Source: Spirochaetota bacterium
GTDB lineage: Bacteria; Spirochaetota; UBA4802; UBA5550
Reading direction: 5' to 3'
Assembly (NCBI GenBank): GCA_036848375.1
Contig: DAIUKG010000024.1
Coordinates: 126-64,125, forward strand
Length of the DNA stretch: 64,000 bases
The notes below the pieces were generated by a model. The model did no database searches. It was not told the origin of the DNA and saw only the letters and a list, made by a program, of their open reading frames with translations. The position numbers were made by a program, and so were the translations under genes. Positions 51,955 through 60,657 of the stretch are shown one piece after another. Position 1 is the stretch's first letter. Each line of letters begins with the position of its first letter.

Positions 51955-52446
51955 ATGGACAATGATTCAAAAAAAATTTTAAAAAGAAAAAAACTTGATG
52001 AAATCGACACTCAACTCATCAGCCTTCTTCAACGTGATGGAAGGCTTACTAATACTGATATCGCTAAAAAAATGAAAATATCCGAAGCGACAGTAAGAAC
52101 GAGGCTCAAAAAACTGATTGATGAAGAATATATTCAGATTGTTGCGGTGAGCAATCCGTATAAACTTGGGTTCGCAATAACCGGGGATATTTACATATCC
52201 AGTGAACCGCAAAAAATCGAGAAGGTCATTTCAGAATTAAAAAAAATCAAAGAGCTGTGGTTTATTGTGACCACAACCGGCCCTGCCAATATCAATGCTG
52301 AATTCATTGTTAAAGACAGGGATCAGCTCAACGAGCTGATCCACGATAAAATCAATACTATTGACGGAGTGACCGAGGTTGAAACCGAGATTATTCTGGA
52401 ATACAAAAAACGAAAATACGATTTCGGTACCGCCTATAATGATTAA
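51955..52446 (+). CDS. Lrp/AsnC family transcriptional regulator
   Basis: LDEIDTQLISLLQRDGRLTNTDIAKKMKISEATVRTRLKKL HTH; C-terminal RAM/AsnC domain. Confidence 0.92.
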   Translation: MDNDSKKILKRKKLDEIDTQLISLLQRDGRLTNTDIAKKMKISEATVRTRLKKLIDEEYIQIVAVSNPYKLGFAITGDIYISSEPQKIEKVISELKKIKELWFIVTTTGPANINAEFIVKDRDQLNELIHDKINTIDGVTEVETEIILEYKKRKYDFGTAYND

Positions 52447-52455
52447 TACAGGCAA

Positions 52456-53883
52456 CTATTCACGGTCATCATTAAATACGATTGTTGCCCCTCCAACATC
52501 AAGGACATCGCCAGACTCAAGAACACGCTTCTTCACTGGTTTATTGTTCACGGTTATTTCCCCATCGCAGATAACGGTATAGTTTTTCTTTTGTTTATCA
52601 AAAACAATTGTGGCATGATTTTCTTTTACCGGAACAGGGCCTCCGATTATTGTCATATCAGCCCTGGTACTTCCTCCAATAACCGTCCTGCCTTTATTCA
52701 GCGTGAACATCTTTGTAACAGCCTTTGTCTGGCCGGCATTGAGTACTTCAAGGAAGGCCTCTTTTCTTTTATTTTTAAAACTGATTTGTGACAATATCCA
52801 TGCCAGGCATAATGAAGCCAACAGTGGAATAAGCATAAATAGACTGAAATTCTTCATGGGAAGACCGAAAACTGTGCTTGAAAAATAAAATCTCGAGGCC
52901 TCTTTCTTAAGCGGCCCGGAACCGTATACAACCTTTACAAACTTTTTATCAGCAGGTGCCATTGTTGCCGGATAATCAATCATATATTCATTAACGATCT
53001 GGTCAGCAATCCTGGAATAGACATTTCTGAGTTCAGACTCATCCCGCGCATCAAAGAGAGCGCCCCCTGTTTCATAAGCAATTTCTTTAAGATGCCGTTC
53101 TTTCCTTTCACGGGGGTCGCCGAAATTAATCGCAAAGACTGAAATTCCTTCCTCCTGGCAATAACGAACAGGCTCAGTATAACTGAACGTTTTAGTCCCG
53201 AAATCGGGATGAACTTTTTTTGTGTTTAAAAAGTAAGGCCTGTTCTCGCCATCCGAAAGTATTATCAGCGCCTTTCTTCCCTTTACCTGCTTGAATTCTT
53301 CAACCGCCCTGAAGAGGCTTGCATATATTTCAGTATACCCGGCCTCGCCTTCAGGCTTTTGAATTTCAGAGAGCTGACGGGTAATCTTCGCTTTGTCTTT
53401 AACAGGATCCGACAGGCACTGGTAATAAGTGTTATAAACCGCAATCCCGACTGTGTCTTCGGGGTTAGACACACTCTCAAGAAAAGTCGCGACCGCATTC
53501 TTCGCATGCTGAATCTTTGTGCTCTTCAGAAATTTTCCCCTGGCTTTCATTGACCGGTACATACTCCCGGAATTGTCTATCAAAAGTAAAAAATTTATCC
53601 CGGATTCATAATTCGCCCTGGGGTTGAATGCTGTTATTTGTGGTATCCTTGTGTAGGTTTTGCCGTCCTGTGATTCAAATAGTGAAAAATTATCGGCTGT
53701 ACAGCCAGTTATCGGTAAACCCTTGTTATCAGAAAGACCGACGTACAACCTCACATTCTGATTAATTAAAAGTGACGATGTATCTATCTGGGATATGCGC
53801 ACTGACTGGGCCAGGACAGGCACCGAGCAAAAAATCAATATTGTAAAAACAAATATTCTTTTTAAAACAGTTAATATCTTCAT
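52456..53883 (-). CDS. Membrane protein: exported VWA domain + TM + cytoplasmic FHA-like domain
   Basis: Start moved to ATG 53883 (GAGGGG RBS); signal peptide; intact MIDAS (DNSGSM, T, LSDG); TM FSLFMLIPLLASLCLAWIL; FHA-like TVIGG..NHATI..ITVNNKPV..LESGDVLDVG. Confidence 0.85.
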   Translation of the reverse strand: MKILTVLKRIFVFTILIFCSVPVLAQSVRISQIDTSSLLINQNVRLYVGLSDNKGLPITGCTADNFSLFESQDGKTYTRIPQITAFNPRANYESGINFLLLIDNSGSMYRSMKARGKFLKSTKIQHAKNAVATFLESVSNPEDTVGIAVYNTYYQCLSDPVKDKAKITRQLSEIQKPEGEAGYTEIYASLFRAVEEFKQVKGRKALIILSDGENRPYFLNTKKVHPDFGTKTFSYTEPVRYCQEEGISVFAINFGDPRERKERHLKEIAYETGGALFDARDESELRNVYSRIADQIVNEYMIDYPATMAPADKKFVKVVYGSGPLKKEASRFYFSSTVFGLPMKNFSLFMLIPLLASLCLAWILSQISFKNKRKEAFLEVLNAGQTKAVTKMFTLNKGRTVIGGSTRADMTIIGGPVPVKENHATIVFDKQKKNYTVICDGEITVNNKPVKKRVLESGDVLDVGGATIVFNDDRE

Positions 53884-53906
53884 AAATGTTCCCCTCACTG
53901 CTCGAC

Positions 53907-54800
53907 TTACTTATAGTGATAAAGCAGCTTTGCTGTCCCGATCTTTATAACATCCCCGATCTTCAATCTATGGCTGCTGATTTTATCATCGTTCACAAAT
54001 AATGGCGCACGTCCATCCCCTGAGGACTTTATGAAAACTTCGTCTTTCTTGACATGGACCTTCGCATGCATGGGATTGACTTCCCTGTAACCCTTTAAAA
54101 CGATATCACAGGAATCACTGTCGCCGACATCAAGCCTCCTCTGGTTGACAAGAAAATCCTTTCCCTTGTATCTTCCGTTAAGGAGGGTGAAGACACCGAA
54201 TGAAAGACGTGCCTCGGCAAAACCGTACATAATTCCAATGCACACGCCCAGGATGAGAAGCCCTGTAAGGCGTGCGAGCATAATATCAGGGAAAATTATT
54301 CGTGCATACTCAAGAGCGAGACCGCCCAATAAACCACCTGATAAACCGCCAATAATTCCGACACGTATTTTCTCAACTGAACGCGCCCGTATCCCTTCAG
54401 CAACGCCGGCGAAAAGGCCAAGCAGCGACCATCCCAGCGCCCGTGAAACCGGCAAACCAATGCGATTGAACTCTTTCATTGAGTGGAGAAGATACTCTCC
54501 GGCAATAAACAGCACGGCCTGCCCGGTTAAAAATCCCAGGACCCCACCCAGTGCCCCAAACAGTATTCCGTGAATGATGCCGGTACGAATCCGGTATTTA
54601 TTGGACATGATTATCCCGTCGCTGCTTCCGAAAAATCCTCCCATTATACCGCCAAACACGCCGCCTAGCGAAAGTGTAAAAACCAAATAAGAAGGAAAAT
54701 CAACCTGAAAGCATAAAATCATCTCTGCAACCGACCATGCTCCAAGCCCGGCGCAAATCCCGATTAAGCATAAAAATATTCTTCTTTTTAACAATGACAT
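53907..54800 (-). CDS. Polytopic Gly-rich membrane protein with C-terminal FHA-like domain
   Basis: About 6 Gly-rich TMs; LDVGDSDSCDIVL..MHAKV..LFVND..LKIGDVIKIG. Confidence 0.82.
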   Translation of the reverse strand: MSLLKRRIFLCLIGICAGLGAWSVAEMILCFQVDFPSYLVFTLSLGGVFGGIMGGFFGSSDGIIMSNKYRIRTGIIHGILFGALGGVLGFLTGQAVLFIAGEYLLHSMKEFNRIGLPVSRALGWSLLGLFAGVAEGIRARSVEKIRVGIIGGLSGGLLGGLALEYARIIFPDIMLARLTGLLILGVCIGIMYGFAEARLSFGVFTLLNGRYKGKDFLVNQRRLDVGDSDSCDIVLKGYREVNPMHAKVHVKKDEVFIKSSGDGRAPLFVNDDKISSHRLKIGDVIKIGTAKLLYHYK

Positions 54801-54818: not shown

Positions 54819-56762
54819 TTAAAGTATTGTAAAGTTTATGGATTTCTCCTGTTTGTCTCTCCCGACAATCACCCGGGTATATTTCCCTGACTCAATATCG
54901 ACTGACCGGGTCTCCTTTACTCCATCACCGTCGACTGAAAGAATATAGGTTCCGGGGGCAAGTATAATTCTCTGATATTTCCCGGACAGAGGCTTAAGAG
55001 TTTTTGCTACACTTCTATTGCCACCCTGGATATAGGATGTTGAATTATTAATCTTTATAACCATGGACTCACCCGCACTTTTAACTATCAATGTCCCGGG
55101 ATAAGGGACGATATCAGCATTGATAAAGACGCAGGATTGATGAGGCTCAACAGTGACCGATAGAATTTTTTTATAGTATTTATTCTTTTGAATTTTAATA
55201 TAAAAGGTCTTCCCGCTCGTTAAAAAAGCGGCTGAATCACGGATATCAGAAAAATCCTTCCAGCGGACCCATTGCCTTCTGAAATAAATATAGATGTCAG
55301 CCTCATCGGTCATATCCAGCCCGGTATGTGCATCATATATTGAATAATGAAACGTCACCGGTATTTCACCTGCCGGATTATGAGTGAAAACAACAATATC
55401 AACACCGTCATCACCACGTTTTTCTTTCTGAATATCTCGCGATAAAATATCGAGATCATTAATATAAAGGACATTGTCAACGTCAAGGAGCAGGCGATAC
55501 TGCGCTGTGTTAACATACGCTCTCTGCGTTTTATAAACCAGCGGACCTCCCACTTGCACGTCATCGCAGTGAAAGCCAAGTTTCACGTTTTCAGCGGGGA
55601 TGAATTTATTTCTCACTTTCTTTAATAGTTGTGCATTAATGTATCGGGGACGCAGTTCAGGCCTGTTTTCTTTGAAATGCACTTCTACCTGAAAAGCGCC
55701 ATACCGGTCACTCTGATACCACTCATGATAGTATCCGGTAACATAAAGATACCCGAGAAGGGATCCGCCAATTCCACCCAGGAACAATAGTGATGCTGCC
55801 GCCTGTTTTATCCTTCCTGTCGCTTTCGTGTGACCAGTTTTGGATGAGATTTTATTTTTTTTATCGATGATTTTATCTTCATCAATATAAGTACGCAATA
55901 TTTCTCTGGACGTCTTCCCGTAACGCTGCATTTTAAAACGCTTTTCCAGCAGTTTAATGATATCATCAAGATCGCGGTAGCGCCTTTTAATGTTATGATG
56001 CATTGTTTTTTTTATTATCTTCAGAAGTACCGGTGAAATCCTGGGGTTAATTTTTCTGGCCTTTATATATTTTCCTTTCTGGATCGCATTTATGGTTTCA
56101 GGAGTGATCGAACCGGGAAATGGCGATTTTCCGGTCACCATTTCATACAGGACCACCCCCAGGGAATAAATATCCGCCCTTTTATCAACACTGCTGCAGT
56201 CTGTAATCTGTTCGGGTGACATATATGCCGGAGTTCCCAGCGTCATTTCCCTGGTGAGGCATTGATCAGTTGAATCCTTTGACGTGGCAATGCCGAAGTC
56301 AGTCAGCTTAACCGCGCCTTCATGCGAGATTAAAACATTGTCAGGCTTGATATCACGGTGAATAACACCATTGTCATGGGCATACTTCAACGCCTGGCAT
56401 ATCTCATACAGAATGAGTCTGGCAATTTCACCGGGCAGATATCGTTTCTTGGCAATCAGCCGCGAAAGCGTGATACCATTGACGTATTCCATTGCAATAT
56501 AGTAAAACTGCCCTTCCTTGAAATGATCATAAACCTGAACAATGCGGTCATTATGAAAATCCATCATAAGCTTTGCTTCCCGCTTGAAGCGTTCAGTAAT
56601 ATTTCTACCGCTACCCAGAGCCAGGCGTTTGAGAATAATTTCCCGGTTCAGAGTGGGATGTTTAGCTTTAAAAATGTCTCCCATCCCACCGGAAGCAATT
56701 TTTTCAACAACAGTGTATTTACCAACTGATCGTTTCATCATGATTAAAACTCTCTTCTTCAC
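54819..56762 (-). CDS. Hanks-type Ser/Thr protein kinase with TM and exported C-terminal domain
   Basis: IASGGMGDIF, IILK, HRDIKPDN, DFG, GTPAYMSPEQ, DIYSLG; TM LLFLGGIGGSLLGYLY; GTG start overlaps the phosphatase stop (alternative ATG 56741). Confidence 0.93.
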   Translation of the reverse strand: MKKRVLIMMKRSVGKYTVVEKIASGGMGDIFKAKHPTLNREIILKRLALGSGRNITERFKREAKLMMDFHNDRIVQVYDHFKEGQFYYIAMEYVNGITLSRLIAKKRYLPGEIARLILYEICQALKYAHDNGVIHRDIKPDNVLISHEGAVKLTDFGIATSKDSTDQCLTREMTLGTPAYMSPEQITDCSSVDKRADIYSLGVVLYEMVTGKSPFPGSITPETINAIQKGKYIKARKINPRISPVLLKIIKKTMHHNIKRRYRDLDDIIKLLEKRFKMQRYGKTSREILRTYIDEDKIIDKKNKISSKTGHTKATGRIKQAAASLLFLGGIGGSLLGYLYVTGYYHEWYQSDRYGAFQVEVHFKENRPELRPRYINAQLLKKVRNKFIPAENVKLGFHCDDVQVGGPLVYKTQRAYVNTAQYRLLLDVDNVLYINDLDILSRDIQKEKRGDDGVDIVVFTHNPAGEIPVTFHYSIYDAHTGLDMTDEADIYIYFRRQWVRWKDFSDIRDSAAFLTSGKTFYIKIQKNKYYKKILSVTVEPHQSCVFINADIVPYPGTLIVKSAGESMVIKINNSTSYIQGGNRSVAKTLKPLSGKYQRIILAPGTYILSVDGDGVKETRSVDIESGKYTRVIVGRDKQEKSINFTIL

Positions 56763-57823
56763 GCCTCAAGCGACACTTCATCAATATCATATAAAAAAGG
56801 GGCCTCAGCGATTTCAATTAGATCCTCATCAGGATTAATGTCTTTTCCATTTTTAATGACAAGCATCAGGCACTTTTCCGGATTATGCATTTGAACATAT
56901 TTTCCTTTAGCTCGCAAGGAATATTTCCCTGACACAGCCCGGTGCCCTCCAAAGTATAAGCTCTTTTCCAAATTTTTTTCATCGATATATTCTTCAAGCA
57001 TGAGCATCACGCTCCCTTCCTCTGATTGGCCGTCCGCTGTCCACGTCAGACCTTCAATAACCTCTGGATCATAGCGGTAATTGATAACGCGCTCTCTATC
57101 AAAAAAATTAGCAGGTTCTGCATGTGAAGCAAGGAAATCTTTTCCTGCGGCAACGAGCGGAAGATTTTTCTCGAATTTATAATAATCTTCTTCAAAGTCA
57201 ATGCCATAAAATTTTTTAACATAAAATGCGACCATCTGCCCCTCAAAAGCATATTTCATGAAAGCATGGTTTCCGTCACCTGACTCATTCCTTATGTTCT
57301 CATGGTTCCCTTTCAAAAAATGAAAATTATCGGGGCAGGCCCGTTTTAATTCCATCACTGCCTCCATGACTCCGAAACTTTCTCTCATTTCTTCATCCAT
57401 GAAATCATGATTTTTATAACCCTTTAAAAACTCCCGGTATGCCTGCTCCCACCGCCGTGAAGCCCGGCCTTCTCCGTGCATACCATCGCCGAGACAAATA
57501 ATCTGCACCCTCCCGTCAACAAGGTTGCGCAGATTGCTTGAACCATTCTCGGATTGATAGAACAATATCGTGAGAAAATCAAAAAGGCGGCCATGAAGAT
57601 CGGGGATGATTATCGAATCAATATCATGCCGCAGAAGCACCAGCCCGCCCGGCAGGTTGTTCCGGTCACGGGGCCTTATTGCAGAATTCTCGTTAGCCAG
57701 AACTTCACAGACGCCCCGGACCCTTACTTCAATAGTGAAAGGGTCAGGGGGGGCGTCTCTGGAGTAAATCTCCAGCAGGCTGTCTTTAACTTCTGTGAAG
57801 AGTTTATCTGTCTGTTTCATCAT
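56759..57823 (-). CDS. Calcineurin-like metallophosphoesterase, putative protein phosphatase
   Basis: Start approximate (57820-57832), directly after the upstream stop; PDLHG, LGDGMH, KGNHE, SHAEP, GGHR. Confidence 0.82.
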   Translation of the reverse strand: MMKQTDKLFTEVKDSLLEIYSRDAPPDPFTIEVRVRGVCEVLANENSAIRPRDRNNLPGGLVLLRHDIDSIIIPDLHGRLFDFLTILFYQSENGSSNLRNLVDGRVQIICLGDGMHGEGRASRRWEQAYREFLKGYKNHDFMDEEMRESFGVMEAVMELKRACPDNFHFLKGNHENIRNESGDGNHAFMKYAFEGQMVAFYVKKFYGIDFEEDYYKFEKNLPLVAAGKDFLASHAEPANFFDRERVINYRYDPEVIEGLTWTADGQSEEGSVMLMLEEYIDEKNLEKSLYFGGHRAVSGKYSLRAKGKYVQMHNPEKCLMLVIKNGKDINPDEDLIEIAEAPFLYDIDEVSLEA

Positions 57824-57833
57824 ACCTAACATG

Positions 57834-58367
57834 CTAAGCATTGCTGATGCATGTTTTGTTGATATCAATAAAATCTTTTGTGAGGGCCAGGGTCGCTCTT
57901 GTAAGCACCTTTTCCTGGTCATCGGCTTCAAGGGAATCATTATAAACCGCGATTTTATAAACCGCTGACGTCTTCCTGACCGGGCCTTTTTCGAACTGAA
58001 CCTCCTCATCAATAAGCACATCGCTTGAAAGAGACGAGGCATCTTCCTCTGCTGCGTCAGGGACATCCTTTCGCAGGCCAATACTTGTATAACTTGTCTT
58101 TCTTTTTTCACCAACAACCGGTCCGATATTGACCAGGGACCCGGAATAAGTCATGACAAGCGCTCCCCGATTGTCGTCTTTTTCAAGATAATCGACTTCA
58201 TCCATGCCTGCGGAATCGATTTCCTTTTCAAACGCATTCTTCTTTTCAATCCAGGCTTCGGCCATTCTTTCAAGCGATTCGTCTGAATTATCAAGGCCCG
58301 ATATCTTCACTATGTCACGCAAATGTTCCTGAACCGTTTCCGGTATCTGATTTAAGTATTCTCCCAT
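57834..58367 (-). CDS. Hypothetical protein, stand-alone domain X (TYSGSL family)
   Basis: Start moved to ATG 58367 (AGGAGG RBS); 177 aa; collinear similarity to the N-terminal part of 58607-59473. Confidence 0.78.
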   Translation of the reverse strand: MGEYLNQIPETVQEHLRDIVKISGLDNSDESLERMAEAWIEKKNAFEKEIDSAGMDEVDYLEKDDNRGALVMTYSGSLVNIGPVVGEKRKTSYTSIGLRKDVPDAAEEDASSLSSDVLIDEEVQFEKGPVRKTSAVYKIAVYNDSLEADDQEKVLTRATLALTKDFIDINKTCISNA

Positions 58368-58606
58368 CTTCCCCTCCTGTAATAAAATCATATATGAGTA
58401 ATAAAAAAATTCCCGATCGTCAAATTTTCCGGCACTTTTTTTTAAGTTATATGCTTTCTTTTGTAATTTTTTTGCCTTCAGGGTTTTTCTTTCCATATTA
58501 AACACGAAAAGGCAATAAAATGAATATTTTTTCGGTTTAAGTTTGTCATTCCTGTCTTTTTATTGTATCTATATACGATTGCAACAAAAACCTTGAGGAG
58601 GTTCCT

Positions 58607-59473
58607 ATGGATTCTTTGCACATCTCTCTTCCTGAACAAATTCAGGAACATTTAAAAACCCTGATACCGGAATCCCCGGCCGCTGACAGAGAAAAATTCC
58701 TGGAAGAACTGAAAAAAAACTGGAACTCCAAACACGAGCTTTTTAATGCGCAGATAAAATCCCTGGACATGATTTACGCCGATAATTTCGAAAGTGAAGA
58801 CCCTTCCGCCGCTTTAATGCTCACCTATTCCGGTTCCCTTATTGGCTTCAGCACCGTAAAAAAATCTCATCGTCGCATTGAATATTACAGCATTAAACTC
58901 AGGGCGGATGTCCCTGAAGCAATGAAAATCGAAGAAACACAAATTAAAGGCCAAGCGGCTGTGGGCAAAGTGCTTGAGTTAAATAGTGGCGCTCTTCAGA
59001 AAACATCCGCCCTTTTTAAAATTGCCCGATTCAAAGAAGGGGTTTCTGAAGATGAACAGAATATTCGTGTTGAAGAAGCGATAATTTTTCTCACCGATGG
59101 CTTTGTAAAAATCAATCAAGAGTTGAATCTTAATAGCTCGCCTGAACCGGGTCAGTTTACTATAAAATCAATCATTACTCAAATCGCCCATAAAAATGAT
59201 TTATCCCGGAAACAGATAAAAACAATTCTTGATGATTACTGGAACATTATCGAGAAAGGAATTCTTATGGGAGAAAAAATACCGCTCGGGAAAATCGGAA
59301 AAGCCTATCTTAAAATGCGGCATTCCCGGAAAGCGAGAATTGGAAAAAACTTAATTACCGGAGATGATGTTACCATCCGCGCAAAACCGGAAATGGCAGT
59401 TCCCAAAATGTCATTCAGCTCCTACATCAAAAACAAAGCCCAGGGGATTTCGATAGACCACGATCTGGATTAA
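58607..59473 (+). CDS. Domain X fused to a C-terminal HU/IHF-like DNA-binding domain
   Basis: GAGGAGG RBS; aa 184 onward TIKSIITQIAHKNDLSRKQIKTILD..IPLGKIG..RKARIGKNLITGDDVTIRAK..PKMSFS matches the HU fold. Confidence 0.8.
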   Translation: MDSLHISLPEQIQEHLKTLIPESPAADREKFLEELKKNWNSKHELFNAQIKSLDMIYADNFESEDPSAALMLTYSGSLIGFSTVKKSHRRIEYYSIKLRADVPEAMKIEETQIKGQAAVGKVLELNSGALQKTSALFKIARFKEGVSEDEQNIRVEEAIIFLTDGFVKINQELNLNSSPEPGQFTIKSIITQIAHKNDLSRKQIKTILDDYWNIIEKGILMGEKIPLGKIGKAYLKMRHSRKARIGKNLITGDDVTIRAKPEMAVPKMSFSSYIKNKAQGISIDHDLD

Positions 59474-59703: not shown

Positions 59704-60138
59704 ATGAGTGCTAATATTGAGACAAGACAAAGTAAATACACAGAAAGGTACAAAGATCATCAGGTTCTAGCAGAGGATATTCTGAATGATGCACAGGAAG
59801 CTGATTTTTTTAAACAAATCAGACTTCGCCTTAAAGAAGTGAGAAAAGAACTTAAAATGACGCAAAGAGAGTTCGGGGAGTCTTCAGGAATTGACAGGCG
59901 ATATGTTGCTAAAGTTGAATGCGGTTCACAGAATCCTTCGTTTAAATTTTTACGAAGCATTTCCATTAAACACAAGATATCACTTGACTGGCTTCTGTAT
60001 GGCGTAGGTGACAAATACGTTGCTGCAGAGGAACAGAGTTATGGAAGTGAACTTGCCGTTTTTAAAAAACTTCTTGATAACGCCTCTCAGGATGATATTG
60101 ATGTTGTCGTCAAAATGATAAAAAAGATTCTTGGCTGA
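59704..60138 (+). CDS. XRE/Cro-C1 family HTH transcriptional regulator
   Basis: RLKEVRKELKMTQREFGESSGIDRRYVAKVECG..PS..SLDWLLYG; AGAGG RBS. Confidence 0.9.
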   Translation: MSANIETRQSKYTERYKDHQVLAEDILNDAQEADFFKQIRLRLKEVRKELKMTQREFGESSGIDRRYVAKVECGSQNPSFKFLRSISIKHKISLDWLLYGVGDKYVAAEEQSYGSELAVFKKLLDNASQDDIDVVVKMIKKILG

Positions 60139-60180: not shown

Positions 60181-60204
60181 GGGTACCGAAGGTACCCTTT
60201 TTTT
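60181..60204 (+). terminator. Rho-independent terminator between convergent genes
   Basis: GGGTACC-GAA-GGTACCC stem-loop followed by a T7 run, downstream of the XRE gene. Confidence 0.7.
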
Positions 60205-60559
60205 AGTGGTGGACGATATATACTATTTCAAGATTTGCATTCAGCTCATGCAAATCATTTAATGAATGAGCCTGCCATTGAATGTATTTTGATGCATAGA
60301 TAACAATTTTTCGATTATGCTCCGAATCTCTGAGTTTGACCAGAAAAAGTCCCAGTGAAGCGATACCTGAACTATTGATTATTTCCAGCCGGGTAAAATC
60401 TAAAATCAGAGGCTCAGCAGTGCTCATAGCATGATGCATGGTAAAATTAATTATTTCATCATAGCTTTCGATTGACTGAAGCCGAAGATTCCCTGAAAAC
60501 ACGATTTTATTATCATCTTTCTGGTACTCTACGCTATATGTTTCACCCTTAATTTTCAT
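60203..60559 (-). CDS. STAS-like protein resembling the slr1659 family
   Basis: Start moved to ATG 60559; MKIKGETYSV..FSGNLRL..LILDFTRLEIINSSGIASL..IQWQAHSL; STAS phospho-Ser region INSSG. Confidence 0.7.
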   Translation of the reverse strand: MKIKGETYSVEYQKDDNKIVFSGNLRLQSIESYDEIINFTMHHAMSTAEPLILDFTRLEIINSSGIASLGLFLVKLRDSEHNRKIVIYASKYIQWQAHSLNDLHELNANLEIVYIVHH

Positions 60560-60657
60560 AACCTGTCTGATATAATCAGTATACCTATTATGACATTTAT
60601 CGTACAATTATCTGCTTAGTAAATTTATAGCGGTTAACGATTAAATTAAAGCATTTT

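Follow-up and report, generated by a model that had tools for sequence, protein, structure and literature searches.

A paralogous domain pair, one copy fused to HU, probably links a Ser/Thr-kinase pathway to DNA in spirochaetes

What is the role of two divergent paralogues in a spirochaete, only one of which carries an HU DNA-binding domain, when the other heads an operon encoding a Ser/Thr kinase? The window (the whole 64-kb stretch of DNA that was analysed) contains such a pair: X-only, which consists of the shared domain (domain X) alone, and X-HU, in which domain X is followed by an HU domain. The pair and its surroundings comprise the following features.

52456-53898, minus strand: VWA-FHA protein, 480 aa, last cistron of the operon (PF13519/PF00092, VWA E 2.8e-15; PF00498)
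53907-54800, minus strand: polytopic membrane protein with a C-terminal cytoplasmic FHA domain, 297 aa (PF16697, PF00498)
54819-56762, minus strand: Hanks-type Ser/Thr protein kinase, 647 aa (PF00069, E 1.9e-55)
56759-57832, minus strand: calcineurin-like (PPP-type) metallophosphatase, 357 aa, second cistron (PF00149, 22.7 bits against a cut-off of 21.5)
57834-58367, minus strand: X-only gene, 177 aa, pI 4.4 (acidic), domain X alone, first cistron of the kinase operon
58368-58606, no strand: divergent intergenic region, 239 bp, 30% GC, with A/T tracts
58607-59473, plus strand: X-HU gene, 288 aa (domain X, aa 1-172; low-confidence linker, aa 176-181; HU, aa 186-277)
58607-59122, plus strand: domain X of X-HU, paralogous to X-only (32% identity, E 4e-31)
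59162-59437, plus strand: HU/IHF-type DNA-binding domain of X-HU (PF00216, Foldseek matches to HU/IHF, alignment to S. aureus HU)

Both open reading frames lie where the earlier note had placed them, and their products align over 164 residues with zero gaps (53 identical, 32%; 55% positives; BLASTP E 4e-31), which establishes the paralogy that it had proposed; the motif pairs it had quoted all fall inside this alignment. The longest minus-strand reading frame at X-only spans 57834-58505, but the start was assigned to the ATG at 58365-58367 (177 aa) because all ~52 homologue clusters are ~176 aa long and begin at MGxY..., and because AGGAGG lies 5 nt upstream. The same hexamer stands 5 nt before the ATG of X-HU and was the most enriched k-mer over 45 orthologous intergenic regions, in agreement with the strong ribosome-binding sites already claimed for both genes. 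An identical X-HU protein was found on 19 contigs of independent assemblies, with its neighbours unchanged. The X-only and X-HU clades are reciprocally monophyletic, with 26-51% identity between them, and a recent duplication or gene conversion is thereby ruled out. Downstream of X-HU lies a gene for an XRE-type HTH protein (59704-60138), which is not conserved beside X-HU at other loci.

The C-terminal part of X-HU (aa 186-277) matched PF00216 (Bac_DNA_binding) with 48.2 bits (E 1.3e-12, cut-off 22.4) over profile positions 3-88 of 90, and the same family is carried by 39 of 39 X-HU relatives. In the AlphaFold model this part shows the elements of HU (helices 186-197 and 201-220, strands within 231-270 and a helix at 272-279; pLDDT ~90), and a Foldseek search with the X-HU model returned HU/IHF chains only (best E 1.4e-6, TM to target 0.66-0.86); the HU/IHF-like domain suggested at about 59156-59440 is thus borne out, with slightly narrower limits. 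The basic beta-arm is kept (R241, K242, R244 and K247), with R241, R244 and K247 falling opposite the arginines in the arm of S. aureus HU as basic equivalents of R55/R58/R61, and R244 recurs in 37 and K/R247 in 31 of the 39 relatives. The N-x-x-T-G arm tip is kept as well. Leu249 (GKNLITG) occupies the usual position of the intercalating proline, so that the R-N-P-x-T-G form is absent here; across the 39 relatives this position is P in 19, F in 12, R in 4, L in 3 and I in 1. DNA bending by X-HU may be atypical because of this replacement, and intercalation may persist, since Leu249 is hydrophobic. The model PF18291 of the HU-HIG clade, which is marked by an additional hairpin at the N terminus and an additional strand at the C terminus, scored 22.4 bits against X-HU, below its cut-off of 26.2, and also appears among the precomputed Pfam matches of 3 of the 39 relatives.

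Domain X is an unclassified, spirochaete-restricted alpha/beta domain. The two window proteins gave no match for it in Pfam at E <= 0.1 or in NCBIfam up to E 1, and 52 family members gave only scattered sub-threshold matches in these collections; the X profile found only a proteasome subunit among PDB sequences (E 0.011, noise), and a Foldseek search of PDB and BFVD with the X model returned no fold match (best BFVD E 0.019, TM 0.13). The description of the shared domain as unrecognised therefore stands for Pfam, NCBIfam, PDB sequences, PDB folds and BFVD folds. Among 1.84 billion representative proteins searched with the profile there were only 216 matches, whose lengths fit X-only, ~300-aa fusions (X-HU, X-Y) or fragments, together with one VWA fusion, and there was no sign of a wider X superfamily among them. 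The AlphaFold model of X-only is confident (pLDDT 87.8, pTM 0.85), with the topology alpha-alpha-beta(8-9)-alpha, and the predicted secondary structures of domain X in X-HU follow in the same order. Beyond the start Met, 25 positions hold the same residue in at least 90% of both clades, among them K42, T73, S75, G76, S77, R89, Y93, R99 and S134, and no clade-discriminating column was found in the X-only/X-HU alignment. A common binding partner is therefore expected for X-only and X-HU.

X-only is the first of five genes, in the order X-only, metallophosphatase, Hanks Ser/Thr kinase, membrane FHA protein and VWA-FHA protein, with gaps of 1, -4, 18 and 8 nt. The ATG of the metallophosphatase lies 1 nt past the X-only stop codon and the kinase start overlaps the phosphatase stop (GTGA); by these first two gaps X-only is translationally coupled to phosphatase and kinase. 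Catalytic motifs are visible in both enzymes, namely DxHG, GDxxxxG and GNHE in the phosphatase, for which a sequence search found no relative among solved structures, and HRD, DFG and SPE in the kinase, which has one predicted membrane span and a ~300-aa extracytoplasmic C-terminal region. The VWA-FHA protein, judged from its sequence, would consist of a signal or transmembrane segment, an extracytoplasmic VWA domain, a further transmembrane segment and a cytoplasmic FHA domain. Kinase, phosphatase, FHA and VWA components are thus encoded in one operon, the gene order is the same in relatives, and X-only is its first gene in every linked relative.

X-HU adjoins this operon at 52 of 81 spirochaete species loci, convergently at 6, co-directionally at 2 and head to head at 44, so that the layout from which the earlier note had started is a conserved one. 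Linkage was also seen at two further loci, L083 and that of the cultured Alkalispirochaeta sphaeroplastigenens, which has the same head-to-head pair. The divergent arrangement is present in several deep subclades, and linkage is kept across four different arrangements; because it outlasts rearrangement, these patterns argue for selection for linkage between X-HU and the operon. X-HU also occurs with no operon nearby at 15 loci having at least 5 kb of flank on each side, and ORF clustering revealed no conserved neighbours of these unlinked genes. At 17 of 90 loci there are separate small FHA genes no more than 600 bp away from X-HU, which corresponds to 2.29 FHA genes per 10 kb near X-HU versus 0.05 in the flanks (~49-fold; Poisson P 3e-23, a value not corrected for relatedness and inflated by it, as 10 of the 17 loci belong to one Spirochaetaceae subclade). 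These genes occur in at least five configurations, among them two loci (L063 and L076) at which X-HU lies away from the kinase operon, and there are also FHA-GerE and FHA-GGDEF variants; in the window, no additional FHA gene adjoins X-HU. A third architecture, X-Y, in which Y is a helical domain, exists beside X-only and X-HU. In one fusion protein (P0152; 8 contigs from independent samples) X-Y is joined to a VWA domain, a transmembrane segment and a truncated FHA domain, and the X-Y proteins of locus L093 show no linkage.

The earlier view of a nucleoid protein with an HU-less partner keeps its paralogues, its HU domain and its conserved head-to-head layout, but not a free-standing partner, as X-only heads a five-gene operon. 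Since X-only is part of the operon, X-HU is linked to it and FHA genes join X-HU, the frame is Ser/Thr phospho-signalling and not simply a nucleoid protein and its antagonist. We give roughly even odds (a probability of about 0.5) to the reading in which domain X serves specifically in one phospho-threonine signalling pathway, with X-HU as the arm of that pathway that binds DNA, and the pair probably links a Ser/Thr-kinase pathway to DNA in spirochaetes. Translational coupling, persistent linkage, the FHA genes, the P0152 fusion as a Rosetta stone, the residues common to both clades, the catalytic motifs and the basic HU arm speak for this reading; the 15 unlinked loci, the X-Y proteins of L093, the kinship-inflated FHA count, the lack of an FHA neighbour of X-HU in the window, Leu249 and an ordered hairpin in domain X speak against it. 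This hairpin is the invariant T73-Y-S-G-S77 motif, which AlphaFold models as a well-ordered beta-hairpin (pLDDT ~92) and not as a disordered segment, and whose +3 residue is Gly. Kinase substrates are typically phosphorylated in disordered segments, and Gly at +3 is not the classic FHA preference; a loop that binds a ligand or phosphate is an equally possible reading of the motif.

The mechanism that we propose has X belonging to a trans-envelope Ser/Thr phospho-signalling module made up of the Hanks kinase, the PPP-type phosphatase, the membrane FHA protein and the VWA-FHA protein. An old duplication gave rise to two X proteins, one (X-only) co-translated with kinase and phosphatase as the first cistron, the other (X-HU) combining domain X, a flexible linker and an HU DNA-bending domain. 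The kinase/phosphatase/FHA machinery would act through X, which would either accept phosphate or offer FHA domains a docking site, and X-HU would be the DNA-binding output, with phosphorylation state switching either where X-HU is located or its binding to the nucleoid or to promoters. X-only would compete with X-HU for a shared partner, or buffer it, because the conserved surface is common to both. The analysis shows the paralogy, the HU fold, the organisation of the operon, the conserved linkage, the FHA-gene enrichment and the variant fusions; phosphorylation of X or its binding by FHA domains, regulated DNA binding and the direction in which X-only acts are what we infer.

An alternative interpretation, compatible with the phospho-signalling reading and somewhat unlikely as the explanation of the locus, is that X mediates homo- or hetero-oligomers and X-only is an HU-less, dominant-negative partner of X-HU, the two being balanced through a bidirectional promoter with the operon merely downstream. 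Both transcription units must have their promoters in the intergenic region 58368-58606, and among the 44 head-to-head loci intergenic lengths range from 64 to 564 bp, with many of only 64-116 bp, which would force the promoters to overlap. Such a balance would also suit the positions conserved in both clades and the opposite charge of the acidic X-only (mean pI 4.6) and the basic HU part (mean pI 9.7). However, X-only is translationally coupled to phosphatase and kinase, and this view leaves unexplained the linkage of X-HU to the complete operon where the two are convergent or co-directional, the FHA genes that accompany X-HU and the fusion of X with a VWA membrane protein. Within the intergenic region of the window no sigma-70-like site was called, the repeats are imperfect inverted repeats only, and Rfam gave no match there or at locus L025; k-mer enrichment across the 45 orthologous regions gave, in place of an operator motif, only the ribosome-binding site and clade-specific sequence. 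The ~480-bp regions of one subclade, first taken as plain intergenic DNA, proved to encode a small FHA protein.

It is unlikely that X is instead a sensor of a small molecule or nucleotide, bound through K42/T73/S75/G76/S77/R89/Y93/R99/S134, such that X-HU would be ligand-gated and X-only would signal to kinase and phosphatase. These polar and basic residues do lie in ordered elements, and the modelled Ser-Gly-Ser hairpin resembles an anion-binding site; an FHA-GGDEF gene stands beside X-HU at L076, and an adenylate/guanylate cyclase gene beside the VWA-X-Y fusion at L084. The top Foldseek matches of X are ligand-binding helix-grip proteins (PYL, Bet v 1), but they are weak and not significant (E >= 0.1, TM < 0.25), and a START / Bet v 1 / PYL helix-grip fold was rejected (best match 9gnm_A, E 0.1, probability 0.21, TM 0.19, rmsd 15.7 A). 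Nor was a riboswitch or a ligand-metabolism gene consistently linked, either among X-HU neighbours or by Rfam on the window and L025. That X-HU is a housekeeping HU with a lineage-specific N-terminal extension, next to X-only as a relic of duplication, is very unlikely: it accords with the sources' annotation of X-HU solely as a nucleoid DNA-binding protein, with the absence of a second HU gene from the 64-kb window and with the 15 unlinked loci, yet the duplication is old and linkage has nonetheless persisted and re-formed in other orientations, and FHA genes co-localise with X-HU even without the operon.

A more specific version of the phospho-signalling reading is tentative. It would make X a new fold that serves as phospho-switch and FHA-docking domain and couples an HU bender to a trans-envelope kinase-FHA-VWA sensor, X-only a partner-switching competitor that sets a threshold, and the C-terminal output (none, HU or Y) exchangeable; the result would be a short signalling route from envelope to nucleoid that is specific to spirochaetes. 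To our knowledge, gene regulation and nucleoid organisation of spirochaetes are poorly understood, and in the Hanks-kinase pathways of bacteria a DNA-binding output hard-wired beside the kinase has rarely been identified. If correct, the phospho-signalling reading would provide a defined, testable route by which an envelope sensor reaches transcription or the architecture of the chromosome, would be an example of a general nucleoid protein, HU, that has become an effector under signal control, and would add a new protein domain, probably with a new fold, worthy of its own entry among protein families. Experiments are feasible because the cultured A. sphaeroplastigenens carries the head-to-head pair.

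Compared with classical HU/IHF proteins (PF00216), the C-terminal 92 aa of X-HU have the same fold, basic arm and N-x-x-T-G tip and score above the family cut-off, but X-HU is a 288-aa protein with a 172-aa globular N-terminal domain of no known family, its intercalating proline is Leu (and variable in relatives), and a kinase operon is linked to its gene. Additional modules by which the function of HU is modified or redirected are known from multi-domain HU clades (HU-HIG, HU-CCDC81) and from mycobacterial HupB with its basic tail (PMC5499826, PMC5676037). There they are C-terminal (wHTH, Ig, a Gly-rich motif, TM with SPOR/LysM, basic repeats; PMC5499826, PMC5676037), and the only N-terminal additions in the main text of the HU clade survey are the transmembrane helices of haloarchaeal HUs, with no globular N-terminal domain in spirochaetes among them (PMC5499826), whereas the module of X-HU is N-terminal and globular. 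The X-HU architecture is not described in the main texts of the surveys of HU clades (PMC5499826) and of vWA ternary systems (PMC7159879).

The signalling components have counterparts in the archaellum network of Sulfolobus, in which ArnA (FHA), ArnB (VWA), the kinases ArnC/D and PP2A form phosphorylation-dependent complexes that control gene expression (PMC7472852). The four-part toolkit of Hanks kinase, PPP-family phosphatase, FHA and VWA is the same, and beyond these shared domains the likeness is one of logic only: the Arn network is archaeal, cytoplasmic and without X or HU, whereas in the spirochaete system the membrane anchors FHA and VWA proteins and an HU fusion is the presumed output. 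In Deinococcus radiodurans, the operon DRA0331-DRA0334 likewise joins VWA, Ser/Thr kinase, FHA and Ser/Thr phosphatase genes in a bacterium, with FHA domains as phospho-docking switches (bioRxiv 10.64898/2026.01.23.701218), but its phosphatase is PP2C, not calcineurin-like, and it has neither an X-domain gene nor a linked HU. Hanks-kinase control of the DNA binding of a nucleoid protein has precedents in M. tuberculosis Lsr2, phosphorylated by PknB (PMC6906086), and in HU of D. radiodurans (PMC9900698). In both, the DNA-binding protein is itself phosphorylated and is genetically unlinked to the kinase, whereas the spirochaete pair has a dedicated extra domain and a paralogue hard-wired beside the kinase operon.

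Two divergently oriented ORFs stand head to head in the window: a minus-strand gene coding for a domain here called X (X-only), and a plus-strand gene coding for X followed by a C-terminal HU domain (X-HU). X-only opens an operon of five genes on the minus strand, which was absent from the earlier note:

58607-59473, plus strand: X-HU, 288-aa ORF
58368-58606: divergent intergenic region, 239 bp, 30% GC
57834-58367, minus strand: X-only, 177 aa, start set by homologues
56759-57832, minus strand: calcineurin-like metallophosphatase, operon gene 2
54819-56762, minus strand: Hanks Ser/Thr kinase, operon gene 3
53907-54800, minus strand: polytopic membrane protein with a C-terminal FHA domain, operon gene 4
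52456-53898, minus strand: VWA-TM-FHA protein, operon gene 5

In order, the operon genes are separated by 1 nt, overlap by 4 nt (GTGA), and then stand 18 nt and 8 nt apart; HRD, DFG and SPE motifs are intact in the kinase sequence, as are DxHG and GNHE in that of the phosphatase. Because X-only homologues are all ~176 aa long and begin at an MGxY motif, the real X-only gene is 57834-58367 (177 aa); the longest minus-strand ORF there, 57834-58505 (223 aa), is a spurious upstream GTG extension. Public gene calls give a 220-aa form in some cases and the 177-aa form in others. A 452-aa ORF (56759-58117, minus strand) is likewise spurious: it lengthens the phosphatase gene on its upstream side and runs across X-only in another frame.

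The pair is real and conserved. The two products align over 164 aa without a gap (32% identity, E = 4e-31, BLASTP), an alignment that takes in every motif pair on which paralogy had been proposed, and the strong ribosome-binding sites described in the earlier note are AGGAGG motifs 5 nt before each ATG. Independent assemblies carry an identical X-HU protein with the same neighbours, on 19 contigs in all; therefore, the locus is not an assembly artefact. No other HU gene or X gene was found elsewhere in the 64-kb window. The window has 47-60% G+C over its first 50 kb and 37-45% from about 50 kb to its end, the part in which the X pair and its kinase operon lie; the change may reflect an island or ordinary heterogeneity. 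An AsnC/Lrp-family regulator (51955-52446, plus strand) converges with the operon 9 bp from its 3' end, and downstream of X-HU are an XRE-type HTH_3 regulator (59704-60138, plus strand; E = 3.5e-11) and a 134-aa protein (60203-60607, minus strand) with a faint STAS-like match only (E = 0.087); neither of these last two genes is conserved beside X-HU in other loci.

The HU-like domain reported for the plus-strand protein was borne out by a match of residues 186-277 to PF00216 (48.2 bits, cut-off 22.4) and weakly to NCBIfam HU/IHF equivalogs, and a Foldseek search of the PDB with the X-HU model returned HU/IHF chains only. Assignment as HU-HIG was rejected, the protein scoring under that model's cut-off. 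Alignment to Staphylococcus aureus HU shows that basic arm residues R241, R244 and K247 are kept, while the arm-tip proline of HU/IHF, the intercalating residue of R-N-P-x-T-G, is replaced by Leu249; among 39 relatives, this position is P in 19, F in 12, R in 4, L in 3 and I in 1. DNA binding is likely retained, and the bending geometry may be atypical. Mean pI is 9.7 for the HU part (basic), 5.6 for X of X-HU (mildly acidic) and 4.6 for X-only (strongly acidic).

That X is an unrecognised domain held up in every comparison made. The X regions of both window proteins had no match in Pfam or NCBIfam, 52 X-only family members scanned one by one gave scattered sub-threshold matches only, and the family profile found only noise among PDB sequences. 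The AlphaFold2 model of X-only, built with the family alignment, is confident (pLDDT 87.8, pTM 0.85), with two N-terminal helices (10-23 and 29-52), then 8-9 beta-strands that form a meander (55-142), and at the C terminus one long helix (148-173); the X-HU model has the same order of elements, then a low-confidence linker (176-181) and the HU fold. Foldseek returned nothing significant for X-only in the PDB (best E = 0.1, TM 0.19, weak PYL/Bet v 1 matches) or in BFVD. X is an unclassified domain, and its predicted fold is likely new relative to those in PDB and BFVD.

Beyond the start Met, 25 positions carry the same residue in at least 90% of both X-only and X of X-HU (H15, S31, W39, K42, F46, E57, T73, Y74, S75, G76, S77, L78, R89, Y93, S95, I96, R99, V102, P103, F125, G128, S134, I139, F166 and N170), and no alignment column tells the two clades apart. 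Of these, the invariant T73-Y-S-G-S77 hairpin together with K42, R89 and R99 are candidates for functional sites. Since the hairpin is well ordered in the model (pLDDT about 92), it may bind phosphate or a ligand instead of serving as phospho-acceptor. The loop past the TYSGSL hairpin tolerates large insertions, because some X-only and X-HU relatives, such as P0113 and P0137 from outside the window, carry long Gly/Ser/Pro/Ala-rich low-complexity insertions there.

Searching 1.84 billion representative proteins exhaustively with an HMM gave only 216 matches, whose lengths group near 175 aa and near 290-300 aa, and a word-indexed protein search gave about 40 X-HU and about 52 X-only clusters, named only 'nucleoid DNA-binding protein' or 'hypothetical protein', all named sources being Spirochaetes. 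A scan of one genome per species gave 173 stretches with relatives. Of the best 80, nearly all have Spirochaetota in the title (the exceptions being two 'uncultured bacterium' and one 'metagenome'), and MAGs with the labels Leptospirales, Treponema, Spirochaeta and Sediminispirochaeta are among them. In a neighbour-joining tree, X-only (52/52) and X of X-HU (39/39) are reciprocally monophyletic, with X identities of 34-99% within and 26-51% between clades, so the duplication is old, and gene conversion is ruled out. A third architecture, X-Y (about 300 aa), carries after X a C-terminal part of about 125 aa that is helical, not HU, and unmatched in Pfam:

L084/L085, 8001-10106: X-Y
L092, 4694-5596: X-Y
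L093, 3083-3988: X-Y

In L084/L085 and L092, X-Y has a 7TMR-DISM/SpoIIE (PP2C) phosphatase gene at a distance of 2-4 kb. One lineage carries a 701-aa fusion (P0152; 8 contigs from independent samples) in which VWA, a TM segment and a truncated FHA domain precede X-Y.

Linkage of X-HU to the operon was counted by tblastn of the window proteins against 81 species-level X-HU loci. X-HU was divergent from, and head to head with, the X-only operon in 44/81, convergent at the operon 3' end in 6/81 (including L049, added by hand, whose contig stops inside the kinase gene, short of any X-only gene), co-directional in 2/81 and alone, with at least 5 kb of flank on both sides, in 15/81; the remaining 14 were too short to judge. 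Operon gene order was the same throughout linked loci, and the divergent pair also occurs in cultured Alkalispirochaeta sphaeroplastigenens; in L083, all six genes point one way. In L001, L052 and L079 the operon has no metallophosphatase gene and the kinase directly follows X-only. On the X-HU tree, the divergent state appears in several deep subclades and the unlinked, convergent and co-directional states group together; thus, head to head is probably the ancestral layout.

A shared bidirectional promoter had been proposed for the window's divergent region. A simple scan found no sigma-70 site within it, its inverted repeats are imperfect and it has no Rfam match; orthologous regions span 64 to 564 bp and have the RBS motif alone in common. 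In the many loci where the spacing is only 64-116 bp, a shared regulatory region is physically necessary, and the two genes may be co-regulated.

In one Spirochaetaceae subclade, 'intergenic' regions of ~480 bp hold a small FHA gene of its own, immediately upstream of X-HU and in the same orientation, its stop overlapping the X-HU start. With a custom FHA HMM run over all loci, excluding the two operon FHA proteins, extra FHA genes lay within 600 bp of X-HU in 17/90 loci (same-strand upstream 13, same-strand downstream 2, opposite-strand downstream 1, divergent FHA-GerE 1), two of which (L063 and L076) have X-HU away from the kinase operon. Extra-FHA density was 2.29 per 10 kb near X-HU versus 0.05 per 10 kb over the rest of the flanks (Poisson P = 3e-23, inflated by relatedness; at least five independent configurations). 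Some FHA neighbours are fused to output domains, a hint of parallel outputs of the same pathway:

L076, 7689-8639: FHA-GGDEF (diguanylate cyclase), beside X-HU
L083, 8264-8842: FHA-GerE (LuxR-type HTH), beside X-HU
L066, 8558-9133: FHA-GerE, a further case at about 870 bp from X-HU

Four lines of association link X to phospho-threonine signalling: X-only's operon membership, the persistent linkage of X-HU in several layouts, FHA recruitment beside X-HU and the VWA-TM-X fusion. We infer, as the most economical mechanism, that X would be acted on by the kinase, phosphatase and FHA proteins, with X-HU as the output through which the pathway would bind DNA. X-only shares the conserved surface, so it could bind the same partner and thereby compete with or buffer X-HU, which keeps the proposed HU-less antagonist alive in a more specific form. 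The earlier observation is correct; its interpretation is partly supported, and was incomplete in missing the kinase-operon context.

The toolkit of the X-only operon parallels those of the Sulfolobus ArnA(FHA)/ArnB(VWA)/ArnC/PP2A network (PMC7472852) and the Deinococcus DRA0331-0334 VWA-STPK-FHA-PP2C operon (bioRxiv 10.64898/2026.01.23.701218), and Lsr2 (PMC6906086) and Deinococcus HU (PMC9900698) are earlier cases of nucleoid proteins under kinase control. The HU domain of X-HU belongs to PF00216, yet it is not a stand-alone protein of ~90 aa; a published survey of HU architectures reports, in its main text, fusions at the C terminus and, in haloarchaeal HUs, N-terminal TM helices, and no N-terminal globular domain in spirochaete HU (PMC5499826). 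The X system builds on known kinds, multi-domain HU and Hanks-kinase/FHA/VWA signalling; what is new is domain X, its occurrence in two paralogs of which one is HU-fused and the other HU-less, and its fixed place at the kinase operon.
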